From Promethearchaeota archaeon (GTDB taxonomy: Archaea; Asgardarchaeota; Thorarchaeia; Thorarchaeales; Thorarchaeaceae): a stretch of DNA of 64,000 bases. Both the position numbers and the translations under genes were made by a program. Under the pieces are notes generated by a model, which was not told the origin of the DNA, did not search any database, and saw only the letters and a program-made list of their open reading frames with translations. The stretch covers positions 32,001 through 96,000 of the forward strand of contig WJMJ01000101.1 of the NCBI GenBank assembly GCA_014728035.1. Direction: 5' to 3'. Below are positions 14,807 through 48,021 of this stretch, in pieces. How positions within the stretch are numbered: the first letter of the stretch is position 1; each line of letters opens with the position of its first letter.

Positions 14807-14983
14807 ATGTCTAGTAATTTAGAAGATCATTGGAAAGAACAAGTTTGGGAGTGCAGATGTAAGCTATTCCCACATAGAAGAATACCAACATATAAGCGAA
14901 TGAAGGCTGATGATGATAAAGGTATCAAGTTAAAGAAGATGTTGGAGGATACTTTTATTGATCCATTTGGTAAATCAAACTGA
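14807..14983 (+). CDS. Small hypothetical protein (58 aa)
   Basis: GGAG RBS, ATG at 14807, TGA at 14981. Confidence 0.5.
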   Translation: MSSNLEDHWKEQVWECRCKLFPHRRIPTYKRMKADDDKGIKLKKMLEDTFIDPFGKSN

Positions 14984-15261
14984 ATATTGGTAGTCTAAGT
15001 AGCTATTCATCTTCAAGTTCTTCTAGTCTATCAAGCTCAAGTTCATTATCTAGCTCATCTAGCTGTGATTTCACAGGTGGAATTGACAGCAACACAGTAC
15101 TGATGATGCACGCGGATGGTGATTTAAATTCTGGCCATAATATAACACCAATAAGTGAACCGAGGCAGGTCGCTTTAAATCCATTTAATGATGTATATCA
15201 AGGGAGTTGGGATTTTAGCGGCGGTGAAAAATACCTACAATTAGATAACAGCACAGATTGA
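14980..15261 (+). pseudogene. Orphan poly-Ser + truncated LamG-module paralogue of the tail cassette at 45.1 kb
   Basis: Poly-Ser then CDFTGGIDSNTVLMMHADG (18/19 aa identical to 45146-45202); stops at TGA where the paralogue has Trp; no ATG before the poly-Ser. Confidence 0.85.
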
Positions 15262-15283
15262 TAAGTAAGTGTAGGAGTATGTT

Positions 15284-15781
15284 ATGGATAACGAAATTAT
15301 TTCTAGTAATGGTATCAATATGGCAGCGGATAATCCTATCGAAGATCCTATGGATGAGTCAGCACAACCAGTTGGTGGTGGTCAGGAACAGGTTCTTAAG
15401 GAACTTCTAAATAAGATTCGTAAATGTCCAACATATTCATCTCTTTATGATCTTGAGCCATTATTTAACCGCAATGGTCTAACCATGCAAGTCACCACCA
15501 AGAATCGCATGATAGCATGTAAGATTATGGAGAATAAACCATATTGTAAAAATGTTATTGATGATTATATGTTTATTGGCGCTCTTCGTGATCGTGATTA
15601 TGAGATATCTGACAGAGTACGTGAATGCCTCACGGATTTCGTAATCAATGCTGCTTCCGGTCCTGCCGTGGTTGAGAATAAGCAACGCAATTGGCAGGAT
15701 GATACGCGTCTTTATGGGGATAGGATCTCCATAGCTCGTGAGGATGTTAACACGGTAGCACAAAATGTTATCTTAGGATAA
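15284..15781 (+). CDS. Hypothetical protein
   Basis: AGGAG RBS, 165 aa. Confidence 0.7.
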   Translation: MDNEIISSNGINMAADNPIEDPMDESAQPVGGGQEQVLKELLNKIRKCPTYSSLYDLEPLFNRNGLTMQVTTKNRMIACKIMENKPYCKNVIDDYMFIGALRDRDYEISDRVRECLTDFVINAASGPAVVENKQRNWQDDTRLYGDRISIAREDVNTVAQNVILG

Positions 15782-15783
15782 CA

Positions 15784-17247
15784 ATGGCCAGTTATGATTT
15801 TCCGATTCCTAACCCACGGGGCTTCAGGGCTAAAGATTCTCAGCGAAAATGCGACAAGCCCACTAGTCCAGACCCCGATAGAGCCTGCTGTCCAGACCCA
15901 ACAGAGCTAAGAGCTAATGGGTTAATTCTACATGCCCTCCTTGCTCGTGTAACAGCCAACAATAATACTGTCCACGAATTTGAAACAATTTTCGATGATA
16001 AGAGAAAACTTCTGGAGCTTGATATTCCAGATTGTTATCTTGATTTTATCGAAGATATAGAGGTCGGGCCTAACATATGTCGTTACTTGCGTTGGTTGAT
16101 GTGTGCTGGTGGTGTGGGTGGTAATTATTACCTTCAACCCATTCATCCACCAAATTCAACTAATGTAGTTATATCTGGAAATAGTACCACCGCATTTGAT
16201 TCCGCCATAAAACTTATATCTGATCACAATAACGGAACTGGCAATGAAGAGACGAATGGTGTAGTACTTGATTCTTCCAAATCTTATAAGATTTATATTA
16301 GAGATCATGATAGTCAAGACCCAATAAATGATGGTGATGATAATGAAGTCTATGGCCGTCTACTATATGATGGTACTGAATATGTAGTTGATTTTTATTC
16401 ATGGGTGGACGGGGTTGAAACCCCATATACGTTCACGACCGATGTAAATGTGGACTTGGCGTATGTTCTTGTGTCAAGACAATCGGGTGATTTGACATGG
16501 GATAAATTTGTTGATGTAGAGTTCCACGATGTTATTGATTTGCAGGGTAATCAGGGTCCTCGTGGATACCAGGGGTTTCAAGGCCCTACGGGTTTTCAGG
16601 GTGATCAAGGATTCCAAGGGGATCAGGGATTCCAAGGGAATCAGGGGAATCAGGGTAATCAAGGATTCCAAGGTTATCAGGGATTCCAGGGTCTAAGAGG
16701 ATTCCAAGGCTACCAAGGCAATCAGGGTAATCAAGGTTATCAGGGCTACCAAGGTTTAAGAGGATTCCAAGGCTACCAAGGGAATCAGGGCTATCAAGGT
16801 TATCAAGGATTTCAAGGGAATCGCGGGTTTCAAGGCTACCAAGGCAATCAAGGTAATCAAGGTTATCAGGGATTCCAGGGTCTAAGAGGATTCCAAGGCT
16901 ATCAAGGCAATCAGGGTAATCAAGGCTATCAGGGATTCCAAGGGAATCGCGGGTTCCAAGGCAATCAGGGGTTCCAGGGTCTAAGAGGATTCCAGGGACC
17001 AGCATTAGCACACAAAGCTGGTATTGTCAATGGATCTTCATTCGCTGGTAATCCCAAGACATATTCAGTGACATTTACCACAAGTTTTCCAGATACAGAT
17101 TATGCAATCACGATCACCGGTGCTGTTGAGAGAACATGGACATATGAGAACAAGACTGCAGGTGGGTTTGACATTAATTCTAATTCACCAGTGGCATTTA
17201 CTGAAGAAGTTAGTTGGATAGCTATGGTTATTGGGGAATCCACATAA
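15784..17247 (+). CDS. Collagen-like (G-X-Y) fibre/decoration protein
   Basis: About 150 aa of uninterrupted G-(N/F/Y/D)-Q and GLR triplets; C-terminal small beta domain of fibre-tip type (VTFTTSFPDTDYAITIT). Confidence 0.85.
   Translation: MASYDFPIPNPRGFRAKDSQRKCDKPTSPDPDRACCPDPTELRANGLILHALLARVTANNNTVHEFETIFDDKRKLLELDIPDCYLDFIEDIEVGPNICRYLRWLMCAGGVGGNYYLQPIHPPNSTNVVISGNSTTAFDSAIKLISDHNNGTGNEETNGVVLDSSKSYKIYIRDHDSQDPINDGDDNEVYGRLLYDGTEYVVDFYSWVDGVETPYTFTTDVNVDLAYVLVSRQSGDLTWDKFVDVEFHDVIDLQGNQGPRGYQGFQGPTGFQGDQGFQGDQGFQGNQGNQGNQGFQGYQGFQGLRGFQGYQGNQGNQGYQGYQGLRGFQGYQGNQGYQGYQGFQGNRGFQGYQGNQGNQGYQGFQGLRGFQGYQGNQGNQGYQGFQGNRGFQGNQGFQGLRGFQGPALAHKAGIVNGSSFAGNPKTYSVTFTTSFPDTDYAITITGAVERTWTYENKTAGGFDINSNSPVAFTEEVSWIAMVIGEST
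16543..17001 (+). repeat. 9-nt-period collagen-coding repeat
   Basis: CAGGG/CAAGG recurs every 9 nt, with higher-order blocks. Confidence 0.95.
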
Positions 17248-22287: not shown

Positions 22288-22596
22288 ATGGGCGATCGTG
22301 TCATAATCTACGGAATGCCAAATTGTGGGAAATGTGAAGCAGCGAAAGATAAGCTCAAAAGATTTAACATACCATTTGAAGAGGCATCATACGAGAAATT
22401 TGTTACTGTGCATGATGGTTGGAGAAATGATGGTAGTATAAAGGTTATGGCGGCACGCAATTATTATGGTGAGACTCATGTGCCATTGATCAGACAGAAC
22501 GGTACGGTATTTGATTATCCAAGTTTCATGAAACATTTAAAGAATAACAGATTGACACCAGACAGGAGTAAGCATGCCACCGAGGTTCGTGTCTAA
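22288..22596 (+). CDS. Glutaredoxin/NrdH-like redoxin
   Basis: IIYGMPNCGKC..VP; GGAGG RBS; overlaps the nrdD start. Confidence 0.85.
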   Translation: MGDRVIIYGMPNCGKCEAAKDKLKRFNIPFEEASYEKFVTVHDGWRNDGSIKVMAARNYYGETHVPLIRQNGTVFDYPSFMKHLKNNRLTPDRSKHATEVRV

Positions 22597-25396
22597 GAGA
22601 GATGGTCGTAGCGTTTTATTTAATAAAAACAAAATAACTGAATCAATACTGGCCGCATCATCTGAGGTGAAACCATTCACACGTGATGATGTCATGCCCA
22701 TAGTTGATTCAGCTATTGAATTACTGCATCATGAAAAGATCGATGCAACGTCTATTTATAAGGTAGTTGTTGATACTATACAAGGAAATGGCCATCCGGA
22801 CGTTGCAGATGCGTATGTTGATTATCGGAAGACACGCACAAATATTAAGAGTATAACTAAAGTGCGTAAGCAGGTGTCCGGCCATAATGATGCTACAGAT
22901 ATCAATTTGCTGGTAAGTCCAGAAAGTAAAGCAGAATATCATGGCTGGGATAAATCAAGAATTGCAGATGCTCTTGTGCTGGAAGCTGGTGTAAACAGAA
23001 CAGAGGCAGAAGAGATAGCCGCAATAGTTGAGAGGCGCATATTTAAATCCGGCATAACGATGGTGTCAACGTCTCTCATCAGAGAACTGGTTGACAATGA
23101 ATTATTTGAAAGAGGATATCAGAACTCACTTCAGAAACAACGTGTTATTGGTATGCCACGGCATGACATAGAAGAACTGATATTTTCTAAGAGCAAAGAA
23201 AACTCAAACATAGCGACCAACAATCCAGAAGCTGTGGGGCATTCAATAGCAGAGACTGTTCTTAAACAGTATGCATTGCAGGAAGTGTTTTCAGAAGAAG
23301 TAGCAAATGCACATAGAATGGGCATTTTTCATCTGCATGACTTGGGATACCCACACAGATTATATTGTGGAAGCCATTCCGTTGAATATATTAAGAAGTA
23401 CGGGTTGAGATTACAAAATCTTGATTCATTTTCTGCACCAGCAAAGCATGCACGTAGTCTCACCACTCAACTCAATACATTTTTAGCTAGTATGCAGGCA
23501 TATTATGCCGGTGCTCTTGGTGTTGCGCATATCAACATAATGTACGCACCATTGGTAGACGGAATGTCTGACACAGAATTGAAGCAGGAAGCACAACATC
23601 TTATATTTCAAGCATCACAATCTGCCTATACGCGGGGTGGGCAGTCGGTCCATGGTGATGAATGTATTATCATATACGACACGATCGAAGATAGAACATA
23701 TTATCCTACTATTAGTGAATTTTATCTAAATTTTGTTAAGGATCGGTATCATACATTGTCTATGAATCGATCTAATGGTATGTTGGAATGGAAATCCATA
23801 TTGGGCGTGGTGCAGCATAATCTACGATCAGAGCTTATGAAAGTAACTATAGCAAACGGTTTGTCAGGGATATTTACTGAAGATCACAGTTTGTTTACTG
23901 TAGATGATGGCCAAATTGTTGAATGTATGACAAGCAAAGCCCATAATATTATGGTATATCATGTGGGTGATATGCCAGATTATGTTTCTCTATGCGATAA
24001 GATTAGTAATGATCCAATAGCAAAGCTGTGCGATGTGAGTATCGAGCCATTTAATGATGGAAGTAAATATGTATATGATTTATCAGTAGCTGATAATGAG
24101 AATTTCTTACTATTAAATGGTATTATAGCCCACAACACGTTGTTTAGTGATTTTAATATTCATACTGGAATACCTTCATATCTGAAGGATGTGGATGCTA
24201 TAGGTCCTGGTGGTGAATATAATGGCAAGAAATACGGTGATTATGCCGAGGCGGCTACCAGGTTCACTAGAGCCATGATGGAAGTGTGGTATGAAGGAGA
24301 TGGGGATGGTCATCCAATGGCTTTCCCGAAGAGTGACTTCCACATTAGTCATGATACATTTGAAGATCCTGAGCAAGTTAAATTACTTGATTTTGCTTGT
24401 GAGACGGCAGCAAAAAATGGATCTACATATTTCATATTCGACAGAGATGAGGTTACATTATCTGCATGTTGCAGGTTGAGAACAGCAGTGCGTGATCAGT
24501 ATATGATCAAGCACCCGGAAAGTCTGCGTTTTTGTGGATTTGGGAACATAACCATCAACTTGCCACAATGTGCATATCGTGCTGGTCGTGGTAATATAAA
24601 GAAATTTCACGAAGAACTTGAGAGTGCGATGCATTTAGCTGTTGATGCGCACTTGCAAAAACGCAAGTTTGTAAATAGATTAATGAGTGGGCCATCCATG
24701 CCATTGTGGCAAGTTGGCAAGATTGCTTTTGATGGTCGTAAATATGTTGATTTAGACACGTGCACATATATTATAGGCATTATTGGCTTGAATGAATGTC
24801 TTCATTTCTTGACAGGCAAGGAACTTCATGAAGACGAAGACATGCTTCGCCAAGGACTTGAAATCATAAGTTATATGTATTTTGTGGCCAAAGAATACGG
24901 TGACATGCACAATATGAAGTTTTCTCTTGAAGAAAGTCCTGCAGAATCAGCGTCAAGACGTTTGGCCAAAATAGACGTACAAAATTATGCCTGTGCCGCC
25001 GATTTTGTGCGTGGTGATGTTGATGCTGATGAAATGTACTACACAAATTCTATTCATCTTAGGCCCGATGCAGATGTTGATATCGTAACTCGTATTAAAT
25101 CACAATCTAGATTCCATGATCTCATAGAATCTGGCGCTATTATACACGCTTTCGTAGGAGAAAATCAACCATCTCCTGGTGCAATCAAGAGTCTGGTTAC
25201 AAAGACTTTCTATAACACACATGCAGCCCAAATAACAATATCGCCAGAATTTACTGTATGTAGTTGTTGTGGGTCCATTAGAGTTGGAATGACAGACATA
25301 TGTTATAAATGTGGATCCAGGAATATTGATGCTTCGAGAGAAGACCCAAATCGCGAATTTAATGGGTGGGATAGAAACATAATCTCTCAATTGTAG
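22574..25396 (+). CDS. nrdD: Anaerobic (class III) ribonucleotide reductase large subunit with tandem ATP-cones and a mini-intein
   Basis: VSKRDG cone, HLHDLG..YC, SACCRL finger loop, EESPAES, YYTNS, C-terminal CxxC..CxxC zinc site. Confidence 0.93.
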   Translation: MPPRFVSKRDGRSVLFNKNKITESILAASSEVKPFTRDDVMPIVDSAIELLHHEKIDATSIYKVVVDTIQGNGHPDVADAYVDYRKTRTNIKSITKVRKQVSGHNDATDINLLVSPESKAEYHGWDKSRIADALVLEAGVNRTEAEEIAAIVERRIFKSGITMVSTSLIRELVDNELFERGYQNSLQKQRVIGMPRHDIEELIFSKSKENSNIATNNPEAVGHSIAETVLKQYALQEVFSEEVANAHRMGIFHLHDLGYPHRLYCGSHSVEYIKKYGLRLQNLDSFSAPAKHARSLTTQLNTFLASMQAYYAGALGVAHINIMYAPLVDGMSDTELKQEAQHLIFQASQSAYTRGGQSVHGDECIIIYDTIEDRTYYPTISEFYLNFVKDRYHTLSMNRSNGMLEWKSILGVVQHNLRSELMKVTIANGLSGIFTEDHSLFTVDDGQIVECMTSKAHNIMVYHVGDMPDYVSLCDKISNDPIAKLCDVSIEPFNDGSKYVYDLSVADNENFLLLNGIIAHNTLFSDFNIHTGIPSYLKDVDAIGPGGEYNGKKYGDYAEAATRFTRAMMEVWYEGDGDGHPMAFPKSDFHISHDTFEDPEQVKLLDFACETAAKNGSTYFIFDRDEVTLSACCRLRTAVRDQYMIKHPESLRFCGFGNITINLPQCAYRAGRGNIKKFHEELESAMHLAVDAHLQKRKFVNRLMSGPSMPLWQVGKIAFDGRKYVDLDTCTYIIGIIGLNECLHFLTGKELHEDEDMLRQGLEIISYMYFVAKEYGDMHNMKFSLEESPAESASRRLAKIDVQNYACAADFVRGDVDADEMYYTNSIHLRPDADVDIVTRIKSQSRFHDLIESGAIIHAFVGENQPSPGAIKSLVTKTFYNTHAAQITISPEFTVCSCCGSIRVGMTDICYKCGSRNIDASREDPNREFNGWDRNIISQL
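23645..24136 (+). mobile_element. Mini-intein (164 aa, no endonuclease) in NrdD
   Basis: RGGQ|SVHGDE.., block B TEDHSLF, VYDLSV..NENF..IIAHN|T. Confidence 0.9.
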
Positions 25397-38187: not shown

Positions 38188-38212
38188 AACCCCAGTCTTT
38201 ATGGCTGGGGTT
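38188..38212. terminator. Hairpin between convergent genes (probable terminator)
   Basis: AACCCCAG..CTGGGGTT stem. Confidence 0.6.
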
Positions 38213-38561
38213 CTTCGTATATACGCACGTCTTTGATGTCTATAATCCTAATGACATCTTCATCATCGAAGGGTGATATTATAATTGGTTTGATGGTGAG
38301 TTTGGAAATATCATAAGATTGGTCTATTAATTCTATATCCGCACACAATCGATTATCTTTGATATATAATTGATGCGTAACATGTGTGGCTGTACGATAT
38401 CGTTGAATATGATCCCTATTCAAATACCCACCAACACATGGACAACCAGCGTTAAATTTATCCATGGCTAACTTGGCATCATTTAGATTATATTTCCTGC
38501 CGCTTTCTGATATAATTAATGGTGGTTTTATATATAACTTAGCGTAGATTGTATGGTGCAT
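38199..38561 (-). CDS. Hypothetical protein
   Basis: AAAGGA RBS, 120 aa. Confidence 0.6.
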   Translation of the reverse strand: MHHTIYAKLYIKPPLIISESGRKYNLNDAKLAMDKFNAGCPCVGGYLNRDHIQRYRTATHVTHQLYIKDNRLCADIELIDQSYDISKLTIKPIIISPFDDEDVIRIIDIKDVRIYEEPQP

Positions 38562-38597
38562 ATTAATCCTTTCTTATATTACATATCGTTAGAGTAA

Positions 38598-39785
38598 ATG
38601 CACAGAGAACCATTAGCATATAGACTCAGACCCAAAACCATTGATGGGTTCATAGGGCAGGACCACATCGTGGGTGAAGGCACTTTATTAAGACAGATGA
38701 TAGAGAGTGACAGTCTGCGTAGCGTGATATTTTATGGTCCAGCAGGTACTGGTAAGACAACACTTGCTGAGATCATAGCGAATCATACAAATTCTCACTT
38801 TGTGAGACTTAATGCGACAGCTGCTGGTATCAAAGACGTGCGCAATGCAATTCGCCAAGCTAATATTGAGTACGATTTAAATGAAAAACGTACAACGCTG
38901 TTTATTGATGAGGTACACAGGTTTTCTAAAAACGTGCAGGATGCGTTATTGCCCTCTGTTGAAGATGGTACAGTTACAATCGTCGCTGGTACTACTGAGA
39001 ATCCGTTTTTCTCAGTGATAGGGCCACTAATCTCACGTAGTCATATCTTCCAATTTGAATCATTAACAGAGAAGGATCTATACAAAGTATTACTTGGTGG
39101 TATAAATCACTACAAGCAACAAAATCGCAATATAAGCATTGATGAGGACGCCGCCAAATATCTAGCTGTCAAATCAGACGGCGATGCAAGAAAAATACTC
39201 CAATCGTTAGAATTAGCTGTAGAATCATTTGGGTCCGACCATATCGACATCAATTTGTGCAAACAAGTAGTACCCACAAAGTCGGTGTTTTTCGATAAAA
39301 CTGGTAGTGCCAAGTATGATCTCGCTTCATGCTTGCAGGGGTCTATACAAGCAAGCGACCCCGATGCCGCCATTTATTGGTTGGCTAGGTCGTTGGAATC
39401 TGGGGAAGATATTATTTATATAGCCAGGAGGTTGCTTGTATCTGCGGCTGAGGATGTTGGTGTTGGTAACCCAATAGCGATACCATTAGCTCATAGCGTT
39501 CTGGAATCATGCAAGATTGTTGGTAGGCCAGAATGTGACTTGCATCTTGCCACTCTGGTGGTATTCCTAGCATCTAGTAAACGCAATAAATCTGCTGCTA
39601 TGGCAATTTGGGAAGCTCTTGGCGATGTAAGGAATGATTTTTCCGTTGTCATTCCTCCAGCAATGAAGGATTGTCATTATAAGGGCGCGGAACAACTTGG
39701 ACACGGTGCGTATCATGATGGATCTAATCAAGACGCATATGTAGGCATAAGCAAGAGATATTTCAAGCCTGAAAATTGGACCTGA
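38598..39785 (+). CDS. rarA: Replication-associated recombination AAA+ ATPase RarA/MgsA
   Basis: PLAYRLRP..GQ, GPAGTGKTT, LFIDEVHRF, TTENPFF, SDPDAAIYWL, AEDVG. Confidence 0.95.
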   Translation: MHREPLAYRLRPKTIDGFIGQDHIVGEGTLLRQMIESDSLRSVIFYGPAGTGKTTLAEIIANHTNSHFVRLNATAAGIKDVRNAIRQANIEYDLNEKRTTLFIDEVHRFSKNVQDALLPSVEDGTVTIVAGTTENPFFSVIGPLISRSHIFQFESLTEKDLYKVLLGGINHYKQQNRNISIDEDAAKYLAVKSDGDARKILQSLELAVESFGSDHIDINLCKQVVPTKSVFFDKTGSAKYDLASCLQGSIQASDPDAAIYWLARSLESGEDIIYIARRLLVSAAEDVGVGNPIAIPLAHSVLESCKIVGRPECDLHLATLVVFLASSKRNKSAAMAIWEALGDVRNDFSVVIPPAMKDCHYKGAEQLGHGAYHDGSNQDAYVGISKRYFKPENWT

Positions 39786-42070: not shown

Positions 42071-45000
42071 ATGGCACGTAGCGCACAACCATATTTTTAT
42101 AGATACCCGCACCAGAACAATCGTACTGGTTGGCAACCTGTATGGGTGGGTACGGTACTAATAGCACCATGGCGTAGGGATAAGTTTGGCAATAGTATTT
42201 CTGGTTCGGGTATTATTGAGCTTACATTTGGCATAGAACAAATTGCTGGAGCCAGGGTTGCTGGTCATGACCACATTGGCGTTTTCAAACCAGATTTTAA
42301 TTTATTAAATATTACCATCAGTCCAGTTGAACTAGAAGAATCATATATTGATCTGGACACAGTGTCATTTTATACGGCAGATGGTACACCAATTGACAGA
42401 TCAGAAGCTGATGAAGGTGATTATTTCGAACTTGTTATTGCACGCGGTGTTGTAGATAGAGTACCATATTTACCAGATGCGGACTATTATGACTTATCAT
42501 CGTATCAATTAGAAGTTGAAAATTTAGAGCACGATAGATATAATTTTGTATGGCAGGCTCAATATCATCCGAGAGTCGTCGATAGTAATGATGATTTTCT
42601 GTGTATCAATGTAGATCATGTGTCTCTGGCTCGTTTGGAATCCATTCTTGCACATCCTGGCGAAGTTCATGCCGAAATGGTGAGTAAGACTCCGCCGTTT
42701 TATTTCGAGTCAGAGGACAGGTCCAGCGACCCATTAATTCAATTATATAGACCGTTTGCTGATGCACTTCAGGACATCTTTGATGAGCAGACATTGCTGC
42801 GCGGTCTTAACTGGGTTGATAACATTCCAGGCCAGTTAATACCATATCTAGCTTATTTAATTGGCATTGACTTACCCTATTTCCAGACAGCAGATGATAA
42901 AATTCGTAGATCTATAGTTAGACGTGGTACATATCTTCAGAAGCTAAAGGGTTCCCGGCGTGCCATAATCGAATTGTTCAGAATATTTGGATTTACCATA
43001 GATCTTATTAATTTATGGTCTTCTCAAGATGGTAGTAGATTTATTGCACCAAATGAAAATATCAATGACTCCTCACAGCAAATAACCACAGAAGATATAT
43101 GCCAAGTTGACCCCATACTTGTTGGATATACAGATGAGGGGTTCGGGCAATTAGACATACCATTATTATATAGAAATAATAATGATGCTATAACAGTGGA
43201 CATATGGTTGGTAAGAAATGATTCCAACCTTAAAACATCTCTTGATGATGCGTTGGAATCCATTAATACTGATCCTGAGGCATTTGCTGACGATGTTTGT
43301 GTGCGTGATGCATCAGGTGCCATCATACCACGTAAGCTGCTTGAAGTAGTTCGTAATAAATCCGGATCAATAGGATATAGTCATTTATATTTATCAGACA
43401 ACGTTGTACAATCTGAATATCATACCGGATTGGCCCCATTAACTAATAATAGTATTACATATGATCAAGATACCAATGTCATGAATTTGACGTTTGGCAG
43501 GTATCAGGAATTTGATGGATATTCTGCATATGCATTTGTGTCTTATGAACACACCAAGATAAGCATCCCAATATCATTACAAAATTTGCAGTCCAATAGA
43601 TTCGACATAAATATTATTTCTCGTAGTGGCGTAGACATAGATTCTAATTTATATGAATATCTTCTCGACTTATTATTTAATTTTAAAGCATTCCATTCAC
43701 TGCTGCGCAAGATTAGTTACGTTGTCGATATACTTGATGTATACAATGTCACTGATTATTGTGTTGGTGGTGCTAGTCAGGACGATCCGCGTTTTGATGC
43801 TGGTAATTTGCAAATACCTCCTGCCATACTTCCCACAGATGAAACAGATATTGATTGTGATGATGATATTAGAGATCGAGGGTTTAAGGAAGATGATCTA
43901 ACATTACGTCAAAAAATCATCACATCCTTGCGTAACGAATATGAGGCATGGCAGTTTCTTATCAACACACATAAGATAACTTCTCAAGATAGGAATGATC
44001 TTAGTAAAGTCTCAGATCTTAGCGCGGCCAATGTAGATCCAGATGATGATGGATATAACGAAGAAGGCCAAAATAGGGTCAAGTTTGAATCTGATTTTGA
44101 TCCAGATCATGGCCCAGACAATAGAGAGATTGTAAGAGATGTAGATAATCCACCAACAGATCATTGCTATAAGGGTAGAGTCGAGCAGAATCTGGTGGTT
44201 GAGCGTGTCATACCTCTTGTAGAACAGGTAAGATGTAAACCATGTACCTTAATGCCAGGTCGTGGTGTTTATTATACCCACAATATTAGTAATCCCACAC
44301 CACAGGAATTTGGTTTTCTTGGTGGTTTGCAAAGTCGATATGGCAATTCCAACCTACAGTTTGATACGCGTCATTTTGTTGACACATTTGATGCACGCCC
44401 AGCATACTTTAGACCAAGTCTTGATATCCAGAAAGATACATCACATTTTCCCGGACATCGGTTTATATGCGGTAATCGACTTCTCACTGATTTTGTGCAT
44501 CCAGAATGGCGTGCTCATCCATGGGATTATAACGAGCCATGCGATTGCGACGATAGTGAATTTAATCCGCTTAATGCCTATTTGACAGAGGGAACTGATG
44601 GAGATGAATGGTTAATATTTGATGATATTGCTCAGTCGTGGGAAGGCAATGGACTTGAACCTGACCTTGCCTCATTAGGTGATCAAACTACTGATTATAG
44701 TTTTACCCATGAATTATATACTACTCAACCTGAATCACACCCCTCTATAACCCTAGATAGAGTAACTTTTACGGATGATGAGTCAATATATAGTGATGGT
44801 GAAGCTATATATGACTCCGCTTCTGAATGTGCTAGTTTTGGTGATTTTAGAGATGGTTATCCATCCGAGAGTGATAATTATACCATAAGTGCATATGAAT
44901 TTGTGGTTAAGGTGGGTCCTCACGCTGATTTGTTTGAGGCTATGGGAATACCAGGAGTATATCTTGGATCATCAAGCTCATCGTCTAGTAGCTCATCATC

Positions 45001-45868
45001 TAGTAGTTTGAGCCTGAGTTCATCAAGTAGCTCATCTAATCTCTCATCAAGTAGTTCGAGTAGCTTATCGTCATCAAGTTCAAGTAGTTTAAGCTCATCA
45101 TCAAGTAAATCAAGCAGTTTTTCATCATCGAGTTCAAGTAGTCTATGTGATTTTACAGGCGGCATTGATAGCAACACGGTGCTGATGCTGCATGCGGACG
45201 GCACTGATGGGTCGACTTCGTTCCCAGATGATTCTGATTCTAACCACACTGTTACTGCAAATGGCGACGCTCAGGTTGACACAGCAGTTAAGGTATTTGG
45301 AACCGGCTCCGCCCAATTTGATGGCACTGGAGATTATCTGTCAGTACCCAATTCTAATGATTGGGATTTTGGTTCAGACGATTTCACGATTGATGGTTGG
45401 ATTTACCCAACAGGCCCATCTAGTAATTTTGAGACTCCGCTTTGCATTGACAAGAACGCACAGCACCAAGCGTACAGATACCTTATTGATATTTACATCA
45501 ATTCAAGCGACATCTTCCGGGTGAATGTGTCGGACGGGGCGTCAACGTATGTGGCGAGCGCGACCACAGATGTCCGTGGCGCTTGGCACCACTTCGCGGC
45601 TGTCCGAGACGGCAACACCCTCCGGTGGTTTATCGATGGCGTGCAGGAGGACACAGTTGATGTTACCGGTGTAACGGTGAATTTTGATTCTTCAATGGTA
45701 GTCAATATCGGCGCTCGTACAGACGCTGCAGAACCATTCCAGGGTTATCTTGATGAAATTCGAATTTCCAAGGGCGTGGCTCGTTGGACCAGTAATTTCA
45801 CTCCACCATGTGGACCATATACCGCAGTTGAGAGTTCATCATCAAGCAGTTCGAGTAGCTTATCTTGA
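42071..45868 (+). CDS. Baseplate wedge/tail protein (P2 gpI-like domain) ending in poly-Ser-LamG-poly-Ser
   Basis: LIPYLAYLIG..LKGSRRAIIELFRIFG; LamG motifs FDGTGDYL, DFTIDGWI, WHHFAAVR, GYLDEIRISKG. Confidence 0.8.
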   Translation: MARSAQPYFYRYPHQNNRTGWQPVWVGTVLIAPWRRDKFGNSISGSGIIELTFGIEQIAGARVAGHDHIGVFKPDFNLLNITISPVELEESYIDLDTVSFYTADGTPIDRSEADEGDYFELVIARGVVDRVPYLPDADYYDLSSYQLEVENLEHDRYNFVWQAQYHPRVVDSNDDFLCINVDHVSLARLESILAHPGEVHAEMVSKTPPFYFESEDRSSDPLIQLYRPFADALQDIFDEQTLLRGLNWVDNIPGQLIPYLAYLIGIDLPYFQTADDKIRRSIVRRGTYLQKLKGSRRAIIELFRIFGFTIDLINLWSSQDGSRFIAPNENINDSSQQITTEDICQVDPILVGYTDEGFGQLDIPLLYRNNNDAITVDIWLVRNDSNLKTSLDDALESINTDPEAFADDVCVRDASGAIIPRKLLEVVRNKSGSIGYSHLYLSDNVVQSEYHTGLAPLTNNSITYDQDTNVMNLTFGRYQEFDGYSAYAFVSYEHTKISIPISLQNLQSNRFDINIISRSGVDIDSNLYEYLLDLLFNFKAFHSLLRKISYVVDILDVYNVTDYCVGGASQDDPRFDAGNLQIPPAILPTDETDIDCDDDIRDRGFKEDDLTLRQKIITSLRNEYEAWQFLINTHKITSQDRNDLSKVSDLSAANVDPDDDGYNEEGQNRVKFESDFDPDHGPDNREIVRDVDNPPTDHCYKGRVEQNLVVERVIPLVEQVRCKPCTLMPGRGVYYTHNISNPTPQEFGFLGGLQSRYGNSNLQFDTRHFVDTFDARPAYFRPSLDIQKDTSHFPGHRFICGNRLLTDFVHPEWRAHPWDYNEPCDCDDSEFNPLNAYLTEGTDGDEWLIFDDIAQSWEGNGLEPDLASLGDQTTDYSFTHELYTTQPESHPSITLDRVTFTDDESIYSDGEAIYDSASECASFGDFRDGYPSESDNYTISAYEFVVKVGPHADLFEAMGIPGVYLGSSSSSSSSSSSSSLSLSSSSSSSNLSSSSSSSLSSSSSSSLSSSSSKSSSFSSSSSSSLCDFTGGIDSNTVLMLHADGTDGSTSFPDDSDSNHTVTANGDAQVDTAVKVFGTGSAQFDGTGDYLSVPNSNDWDFGSDDFTIDGWIYPTGPSSNFETPLCIDKNAQHQAYRYLIDIYINSSDIFRVNVSDGASTYVASATTDVRGAWHHFAAVRDGNTLRWFIDGVQEDTVDVTGVTVNFDSSMVVNIGARTDAAEPFQGYLDEIRISKGVARWTSNFTPPCGPYTAVESSSSSSSSSLS
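44969..45142 (+). repeat. Poly-serine coding tract preceding the LamG module
   Basis: About 58 codons, mostly Ser. Confidence 0.95.
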
Positions 45869-47184
45869 ATGGTAGTGATGAATACCTCAGCAAGACACCA
45901 ACAGCTGGTAATAGAACCACATGGACTTATTCAATATGGGCATTAAGGGATACACTTAGTACATCACAATGCTTGCTTGCTGGCGGTACAAGTGGTAATG
46001 ATGATACAACTCTACACTTTAATTCAGATAAAATTCAAATCTATGATTATACCGGATCAATAAACTTTAATTTAAATAGCACCAGCACATATATTAGCGT
46101 GGACAGATGGTATCACTTCTTGTTTGTTTATGATAGCACACAGGCAACAAGTAGTGATCGTATTAAGATATATGTTGATGGTACACAAATAACTGCATTT
46201 GATACTGAAACTTATCCTTCACAGAATTATCAGAGTCGTATAAGTTCAAATAGTACCCATGCTATAGGGCGTAAGCATAATACTGGATCGGAATTTCTAG
46301 ATGGTAAAATAGCAGAAGTATATTTCATTGATGGTCAGGCAAAAGCACCAAGTGATTTTGGTTATGATAATGGTGGCACTTGGACGCCTAAGGCATATGC
46401 AGGCACATTTGGATCAGAGGGATTTTATCTAGATTTTGAAAATAGTAGTGATCTTGGTGCTGATGTTAGTGGTAATAACAATGACTGGACTACCAACAAT
46501 ATTGATTCTTCCAATCAATCTACAGATGTGCCACCATCAATCATAGTTGATTTGATGAGTATTGATTTCAATACTACCACTAGAGGCGTGTATATATACG
46601 ATGAAGTGACAACAACAATTACTGATAGTTTTGCGCATCCAAATAATAATCCTAGCGGTGCCACTTATGATGGATCCAATCTTATCACATGTGGAGAGGC
46701 CGGATCCACAGACAGAATTTATATTCATAGTGGCATATCTAGCACAATAAGTGATAGTTTTGCATCGCCAGATGCATCACCAAATGGCTTGACTTATGAT
46801 GGAACAGATCTAATCAGTTCGAGTCGCGCTGCTGGCAATATATTTATACATGATGGTATAACATCCACTGTACAAAGTAGTTATAATGGTCCTGATCTAT
46901 ATCATTCTGGTTTGGCACATGATGGCACTAACCTCATTAGCACTGGATTTAATGGCGATAAGATATATATTCATTCTGGATTGAGTAGCACTATTACAGA
47001 TAGTTTTTCTACACCAGGTACCGTCCCATATGGTCTAACATATGATGGAAAACATTTGTTATCATGTGATTATGGTACAAATAGAATATATATGCACGAT
47101 GGAATTAGTTCCACCATAATTCATTCTTTTGCAACTCCGGGCAATGATGCTAGTGGCTTAGCAACTACTGGTAGCCCGTGGTAA
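45865..47184 (+). CDS. LamG domain + beta-propeller-like repeats (putative adhesin)
   Basis: NGSDEYL..WTYSIW..WYHF..GKIAEVYFIDG, then 4-5 repeats of GLTYDGxxLI..IYIHxGISSTIxDSF; TTG start overlaps the upstream TGA. Confidence 0.8.
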   Translation: MNGSDEYLSKTPTAGNRTTWTYSIWALRDTLSTSQCLLAGGTSGNDDTTLHFNSDKIQIYDYTGSINFNLNSTSTYISVDRWYHFLFVYDSTQATSSDRIKIYVDGTQITAFDTETYPSQNYQSRISSNSTHAIGRKHNTGSEFLDGKIAEVYFIDGQAKAPSDFGYDNGGTWTPKAYAGTFGSEGFYLDFENSSDLGADVSGNNNDWTTNNIDSSNQSTDVPPSIIVDLMSIDFNTTTRGVYIYDEVTTTITDSFAHPNNNPSGATYDGSNLITCGEAGSTDRIYIHSGISSTISDSFASPDASPNGLTYDGTDLISSSRAAGNIFIHDGITSTVQSSYNGPDLYHSGLAHDGTNLISTGFNGDKIYIHSGLSSTITDSFSTPGTVPYGLTYDGKHLLSCDYGTNRIYMHDGISSTIIHSFATPGNDASGLATTGSPW

Positions 47185-47208: not shown

Positions 47209-48021
47209 ATGTCAGCTGGAACTGATGGCTATACTTTTGAATTTGTGGCGCGGATGGGTTCTGGTGTTCGTGTATATCAAGATGATTATAATTATCATAG
47301 ATGGAAGGGGTATAGATTCGATTGTGGATGCCTGCAGTTTGAATGTGGCACAGAAGGGACTGGTGAGGTAACTGGTACAGAACCTATCACAAGAGATAGA
47401 ATTTGTAATATTGGTTTGTTTCAGGATAATAATCAAAATGACTGGAATTGTGATAAGGTAGAAATTGAAGGCAAAATATTATTAGAAGAAACTTTTGGTG
47501 CACATATGCACCAAGCTGATGGTGAACTAGCCAATTTATTGGTAGCTGATGGGTCAATCCCGCAAAATGGATCATATGATTATGTTGATGACTATGGACT
47601 CATATACCATGTGGAATGGGAATCGGCCAACAATAGAATTGATATTATCTCCGAAGTATTCGACCCACGAGTATGGGGAGAGGATGAACAAGGGTTCATA
47701 GAAAACAGAAGAGTTTACAGGCGTGGTATTGTTACCATTACACGCCAGATAATAATGAACACGCCATACGGATATATGGTTACTGCAGAAGGATCAGAGC
47801 AATATATAGATACCAGGCAGACAAATTATATCTGTCCAGATACTAAACCAGATGATCCGTTTACCAAGCATTTAGATAGCATGGTAAGAGACGATATTGA
47901 TAATATCGTGGTTACTGGTGCGCGGTGGGGTGATGTAGACGAATCAACAGATTCTGATAATAAATGGTCTGGTGTGGGTGGTTCAGACGGTGGTATGTAT
48001 TGGACAAATGTGTGGGCCTAA
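47209..48021 (+). CDS. Tail/baseplate-region hypothetical protein
   Basis: GAGG RBS; acidic Cys/Gly-Thr composition like 42071. Confidence 0.65.
   Translation: MSAGTDGYTFEFVARMGSGVRVYQDDYNYHRWKGYRFDCGCLQFECGTEGTGEVTGTEPITRDRICNIGLFQDNNQNDWNCDKVEIEGKILLEETFGAHMHQADGELANLLVADGSIPQNGSYDYVDDYGLIYHVEWESANNRIDIISEVFDPRVWGEDEQGFIENRRVYRRGIVTITRQIIMNTPYGYMVTAEGSEQYIDTRQTNYICPDTKPDDPFTKHLDSMVRDDIDNIVVTGARWGDVDESTDSDNKWSGVGGSDGGMYWTNVWA

Follow-up and report, generated by a model that had tools for sequence, protein, structure and literature searches.

The stretch at positions 14974-15261 on the plus strand of the analysed DNA (the window, 64,000 nucleotides) is a startless, cut-off remnant of a serine-linker plus lectin-like (LamG) module in the genome of a large uncultured phage. 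The window comprises positions 32001-96000 of C70, a 121,357-bp contig with 38% G+C from a metagenome-assembled genome of 173 contigs (4.3-Mb assembly). C70 is phage-like and encodes a P2 gpI-like baseplate protein, members of the PHROG baseplate-wedge and tail-fibre families, a collagen-like fibre and many poly-Ser proteins. The fragment is probably an untranslated relic of ectopic or illegitimate recombination and not a working spare part for host range.

The fragment lies in a frame of 95 codons from stop to stop, which opens behind a TAA at 14971-14973, stays open to 15258 and closes with TGA TAA at 15259-15264. When the 285 nt were shuffled, the frame remained open in 0.1% of the trials. 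From its N-terminal end, the frame encodes IKLNIGS, a 24-residue Ser-rich run, the head CDFTGGIDSNTVLMMHADG and 46 residues ending in YLQLDNSTD. No ATG, GTG or TTG precedes position 15103, where the first canonical start, an ATG, falls within the head. Both ATG-start forms were looked up and no protein called on record was found for either; the stretch is called orphan because it lacks a start codon and because these two forms have no gene call. The 95-residue translation gave no Pfam or PHROG match, including at the threshold of PF13385, vs 73 bits for the paralogous domain LamG1.

Three coding segments and one breakpoint were delimited: a poly-Ser tract (14990-15062), the head (15064-15120), the N-terminal 46 residues of a LamG body of a short-loop type, here subtype B (15121-15258), which ends just before the [W/F]xFG..DFT motif, and the right-hand breakpoint (15259-15283). 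The last comprises TGA TAA, two further stops (TAA and TAG) in a second frame and the AGGAG that serves the next gene as ribosome-binding site. The frame ends as GAT TGA TAA, 22 nt 5' of that gene; the breakpoint motif is unique within the window, and no LamG-like coding was found beyond 15259. The fragment is not flanked by repeats or a target-site duplication, the only repeats around it being trivial inverted ones of 12-15 nt, and the region gave no Rfam match and showed no excess of RNA structure.

Upstream of the fragment lies o58 (14807-14983, plus strand), a 58-aa ORFan with a GGAG ribosome-binding site and the first gene of the plus-strand unit; the orphan frame is in the -1 frame relative to it. 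The TGA stop of o58 is located 6 nt ahead of the point where the fragment's homology starts. Among 5.8 billion proteins, o58 has no homologue of any length other than itself, and it has no Pfam or PHROG match; the idea that it is the N-terminus of a longer protein was thereby ruled out. Downstream, an ATG at 15284 preceded by AGGAG starts o165, which is followed by a collagen-like tail fibre gene (15284-17247 for the two, plus strand). The fragment is thus sense-oriented in the fibre operon, directly 5' of o165 and the fibre gene, and is not remote from all tail genes. It is probably transcribed, since it is in sense orientation within an operon in which no terminator-like site was found.

The head was compared with its paralogue at 45146-45202 in the tail locus. 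The two copies matched at 47 of 57 nt, with nine synonymous codon differences and one replacement (M/L), leaving 18 of 19 amino acids identical; a tblastn search of the window aligned the orphan frame to 45146-45361 with 44% identity over 75 columns (E 2e-10). The alignment stopped at NS[T/N]D; the next codon is TGG (W) in the paralogue, whereas the orphan frame has TGA TAA. The first-pass annotation had described the poly-Ser plus head frame, the nucleotide match with nine of ten differences synonymous and the TGA vs TGG end, all of which were confirmed. It had also taken the constant head for a recombination handle, an interpretation that the following comparisons do not support.

Scanning IMG/VR with both heads recovered GIDSNTVLMLH.DG in unrelated phage proteins, at the extreme N-terminus in L009 and L010 and in tandem in L008. 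An exhaustive HMMER search with the 65-residue fragment against 1.84 billion representatives gave 15 matches, mostly multi-LamG proteins, and in P0001, P0002, P0005 and P0007-P0009 the motif opens each unit directly after the FTPP end of the preceding one. By phmmer, P0001 matched the fragment at 5e-43 over six units, P0014 and P0008 were also matched, and the piece that is present was homologous to bona fide Laminin_G_3/LamG family members. In an AlphaFold model of LamG1 (pLDDT 68, pTM 0.75), TVLML forms a beta-strand, and about 225 of the 235 residues aligned to concanavalin-A-like/LamG jelly rolls in Foldseek. A widespread phage LamG family thus has GIDSNTVLMLH.DG as its conserved first strand.

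Over a core of 14 codons, LamG1 matched L008-L010 at 28-32 of 42 nt with 13 of 14 amino acids identical and almost all differences synonymous, compared with 34 of 42 nt between the orphan and LamG1. Because the same pattern is found in unrelated phages, the synonymous-only divergence of the head is a family-wide background reflecting constraint at the protein level. Only CDFTG (13 of 15 nt) is specifically common to the two copies in this phage; its sharing argues for a common lineage history and not for recent exchange. The orphan region and 44900-45400 have no exact match longer than 11 nt, too short a stretch for homologous recombination between the head copies. A search for further copies of the head gave only two in the assembly, and neither 86 related genomes nor the scanned collections yielded one.

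The body that follows the head conforms to the short-loop consensus HADGDL..H..TP...P..V...P..D...GSW[DE]F.G...YL. In HMMER alignments it was 48-49% identical, ungapped, to units of P0001 and 48% identical to P0014, vs approximately 33% for LamG1 of the same phage, in which 9 residues are inserted. On these alignments, the orphan body belongs to a different LamG subtype from that at the tail locus. In P0014 (1222 aa), an unrelated body is followed by a poly-Ser stretch of about 150 residues, by the head and by a LamG of subtype B, showing that the full-length poly-Ser, head and subtype-B architecture exists elsewhere. The fragment covers about 65 of the approximately 225 residues of the domain, a complete sandwich having about 150-220, and the matched part reaches only about the fourth of the 14 strands of the LamG1 model; judged against this model, the fragment cannot form a beta-sandwich. 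The 3' remainder of the LamG domain was not found beyond the fibre/glycosyltransferase block or elsewhere in the 4.3-Mb assembly.

The poly-Ser tract has a separate history. Positions 14990-15062 matched C70:112480-112558 at 69 of 73 nt (94%) with one 6-nt indel and in the same codon phase, including an exact run of 35 nt at 15028-15062. The matching segment lies outside the window, 65 kb away, in the 440-residue Ser linker of a 763-aa poly-Ser/propeller protein (C70:112131-114419). Other pairs of poly-Ser tracts on C70 share exact matches of at most 11-18 nt. The homology ends precisely where the Ser codons give way to TGT GAT (CDF). This linker match, its boundary at CDF and its start 6 nt past the o58 stop indicate that the fragment is a mosaic, in which a recently shared linker is joined to an older, different LamG head and body.

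The region around this linker, C70:110681-114419 (outside the window), encodes a pair of neighbouring proteins, one with a Ser run of about 175 residues and the other with one of about 440. The C-terminal propeller of the latter is 66% identical to window positions 46549-47181. Over its N-terminal 73 aa, the former shares 94.5% identity with a gene on C74, which instead bears an extra segment of about 70 aa and ends in a poly-Ser tail.

At the tail locus, the gene at 42071-45868 (plus strand) encodes a P2 gpI-like baseplate protein followed by poly-Ser, LamG1 and a short poly-Ser tail (Pfam Tail_P2_I and Laminin_G_3; PHROG baseplate wedge); LamG1, which contains the head paralogue at 45146-45202, matched PF13385 at 3e-20. 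It is followed on the same strand by a LamG2 plus propeller-like repeat protein (45865-47184), whose TTG start overlaps the upstream TGA in the -1 frame, and by a gene at 47209-48021 that is separate in C70. In the related contig C140, the homologous baseplate protein (L012, C140:2641-6717, minus strand; 1359 aa; 41%) runs directly into a domain of the 47209-48021 type (32% identity, E 3e-34), which forms its C-terminal domain, and the poly-Ser, LamG1, LamG2 and propeller block is absent. A block of about 2.2 kb was thus either inserted in C70 or deleted in C140. The tail-locus LamG is accordingly not invariant among relatives. Of the two observations that the first-pass annotation had named as refuting its exchange hypothesis, a lack of other copies is therefore seen here but an invariant LamG is not.

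The propeller linked to LamG2 and the C-terminus of the 763-aa poly-Ser protein share 66% identity, so that one propeller occurs on two carriers. On C74, poly-Ser runs in frame into a LamG2-type domain (LFDSGSSEYI vs LNGSDEYL in C70). Given this in-frame fusion, the LamG1/LamG2 pair of C70 may be a frameshifted fusion (by mutation, consensus error or recoding) or may be translationally coupled. In the window, 11 residues of poly-Ser and a TGA close the 1265-aa baseplate/LamG1 protein (45830-45880), and the LamG2/propeller ORF has its LamG domain from residue 3 and no alternative start for 230 codons. It is clear that modules beside Ser linkers have moved over evolutionary time. The part of the earlier proposal that concerned reshuffling beside poly-Ser is supported by the C140 tail protein without LamG, the propeller on two carriers, P0014 and the 94% linker match; the part that cast the head as the handle is not.

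The bin holds four further contigs of related but distinct phages (C152, C140, C74 and C27). C152 encodes homologues of o165, the fibre, RNR and RarA at 45-60% identity, and the o165 plus collagen-fibre module is present in C152 and in three metagenome contigs (L014, L015 and L016). All four contigs that carry the module lack o58 and the fragment. The position directly 5' of the o165 homologue is taken in C152, L015 and L016 by a RarA-like gene on the opposite strand, and in L014, the closest relative by o165 (66% over residues 2-107), by other genes. The C70 RarA homologue is found 23 kb from the fibre module (window 38598-39785), and the module lies 5' of nrdH/RNR in C70 and 3' of them in C152. 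Because the context of the fibre module differs between C70 and C152, the fragment sits on a phage-specific rearrangement junction.

Close relatives of the fragment were not detected in IMG/VR, JGI metagenomes, the index of 5.8 billion proteins or 86 genomes of the host's order. One IMG/VR match, L004, was a chance match with no further similarity to C70. Close relatives of the phage were likewise absent from INPHARED (megablast) and from IMG/VR (queried with o165 and the baseplate protein).

Further differences between these phages were noted. A 117-aa ORF 5' of the o165 homologue in L014 (L014:311-661) is Cys-rich with a helix-turn-helix-like tail and resembles the N-terminal part of a transposase, a hint that the site 5' of the fibre operon may serve as a landing site for mobile DNA. 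The RNR-like gene at window 22574-25396 aligned to C152:8353-11889 in three pieces, with about 1.5 kb of extra C152 DNA between the first two and C70 residues of about 362-523 unmatched; judging from this alignment, either phage or both could carry an intein, an intron or an inserted homing endonuclease here. The RarA-like ATPase (window 38199-39785 vs C152:19226-20769) is flipped in strand relative to its small neighbour and is followed in C70 by tail genes and not by the o165/fibre module as in C152. This arrangement points to an inversion or translocation that sets the sibling phages apart.

We infer that the fragment is a relic on the basis of its missing canonical start and ribosome-binding site, its -1 frame relative to o58, its coverage of no more than about 65 of the roughly 225 residues of the domain and the absence of the remainder. 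Set against this are the 95 codons without an internal stop, the intact residues typical of subtype B and the recurrence of the TGA-overlap geometry at the tail locus. The intact frame and subtype-B residues imply that the truncation was recent or that the frame is still under selection. The overlap geometry, in which the first-pass annotation saw a feature shared with 45865, is probably a coincidence, as GGTAGT belongs to the linker homology in the orphan and encodes the Gly-Ser of LamG2 at 45871; the pattern TGAAT-N0-3-GGTAGT occurs in the window only at 14981 and 45866, vs 0.07 expected, for a pattern chosen after the sites had been seen.

Translation of the fragment would account for its open frame. 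The peptide GIDSNTVLMMHADGDLNSGHNITPISEPR belongs to the poly-Ser/LamG frame and could be reached by a -1 frameshift from o58, by coupled re-initiation at aaCTGAat or from a rare start (ATC, CTG or ATT), yielding a small protein of a serine linker and a LamG head-piece, perhaps glycosylated or docking on another LamG. The sense orientation in an operon without a terminator and the similar stop/-1 overlap at the genuine gene start at 45865 are consistent with such a product, as is, for its glycosylation, a 982-aa four-domain glycosyltransferase gene 3 kb 3' of the fragment. We regard translation as unlikely nonetheless: the 7-nt overlap ATCAAACTGA contains neither an X XXY YYZ slippery heptamer nor a homopolymer, a frameshift-stimulating RNA structure was not found (over the 300 nt that follow, folding is no stronger than in shuffled sequences, z 0.26), and the frame has no ribosome-binding site, whereas the neighbouring genes have GGAG. 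Moreover, 65 residues are less than a third of a beta-sandwich and too small to fold, and the four relatives do without the fragment.

The proposal that poly-Ser and the constant head form a handle, with the fragment as a silent or decayed donor of receptor-binding LamG bodies for the tail locus, draws on the near-identical head beside a divergent body, the CDFTG junction found in these two copies alone, the one recent exchange of a poly-Ser tract and the LamG block missing from the sibling's tail protein. We consider it very improbable. Constraint on the protein accounts for the conservation of the head in unrelated phages. Nine of its 19 codons differ synonymously and the bodies are about 33% identical, so that no recent conversion has taken place, and the exact match to the tail-locus copy is 11 nt at most. 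Two thirds of the domain and any 3' homology block are missing, no copies other than the pair described above turned up in the assembly, the 86 related genomes or the scanned collections, and a single crossover between copies in direct orientation would delete 30-65 kb with essential genes. C70 also carries no reverse transcriptase or invertase.

A chimeric assembly of C70 at repetitive poly-Ser DNA would be another source of the mosaic, and it is prompted by at least six contigs of the bin that end in poly-Ser coding repeats (C26, C74, C131, C140, C164 and C165), by the 35-nt exact run shared with another locus and by the co-binning of related phages. Since poly-Ser tracts break assembly, parts of the co-binned phages are probably missing. 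An artefact at the fragment itself is nevertheless improbable, in that a join within poly-Ser leaves both odd junctions unexplained, the one 6 nt past the o58 stop and the LamG cut at 15259, and there is no repeat at the right-hand junction; 35 nt is also shorter than the final k-mers of most assemblers.

Under the preferred reading of the fragment as a relic, the 5' 272 nt of a virion-protein module of poly-Ser linker and LamG would have been left between o58 and the o165/collagen-fibre operon. The linker would be derived from, or recently converted by, that of the phage's own 763-aa poly-Ser/propeller gene, and the LamG part would have been drawn from a different subtype than LamG1 of the tail locus. 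The identity of the head would have been kept by protein constraint on the first beta-strand while both genes were whole, with no handle at the DNA level, and the recombination that left the fragment was possibly templated via linker homology. More generally, and as a tentative possibility, serine-linker DNA might act as a homology patch in poly-Ser-rich phages, through which C-terminal modules such as LamG subtypes and propellers are swapped; the fragment would then be a footprint of such an event, combining the linker of the 763-aa gene with a foreign LamG.

As a gene relic, the fragment is of little consequence, but it offers a dated glimpse of binding-module movement in poorly known large phages with serine-linked virion proteins. 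If linker DNA is a preferred crossover site, this would explain why the same domains occur on different carriers in such phages and would provide a simple rule for predicting module boundaries in the receptor-binding proteins of uncultured phages. A literature search returned nothing specific on poly-serine phage fibres or LamG shuffling.

Among known systems, Laminin_G_3 (PF13385) and concanavalin A-like domains are found on phage baseplate and fibre proteins (PHROGs 24074, 3545 and 13163), and the fragment corresponds to the start of such a domain, from its N-terminal extension through its first strands; unlike them, it has only about 65 residues and stays under the Pfam and PHROG thresholds. 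It superficially resembles the pilE/pilS genes of Neisseria and vlsE of Borrelia in being a startless partial copy of a surface-binding gene apart from the expressed copy, but it has neither a cassette array nor two-sided homology. Models based on invertases or diversity-generating retroelements (DGRs) were rejected, C70 having no resolvase or reverse transcriptase. In contrast to the Mu Gin and P1 Cin switches, no serine invertase is encoded on C70 (the sole resolvase-family match is on C16), and the fragment is a 5' piece in direct orientation. In contrast to DGRs, RVT_1 matches were found only on C136 and C106, and the orphan has A at just four of the ten mismatches.

Gene remnants are found at the mosaic junctions of tailed phages, where modules are exchanged by illegitimate or short-homology recombination, as in lambdoid and T4-like phages. 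The fragment resembles these remnants in being a truncated piece of a structural gene, without a start codon and without a partner fragment, that lies between intact genes at a site where gene content and order vary among relatives. It differs from them in that one of its ends is a low-complexity poly-Ser linker with 94% identity to a linker of the same genome, which suggests that linker DNA was itself a participant in the exchange. Such remnants at mosaic junctions are a known kind of feature, and the near identity of linker to linker is the sole unusual element here.
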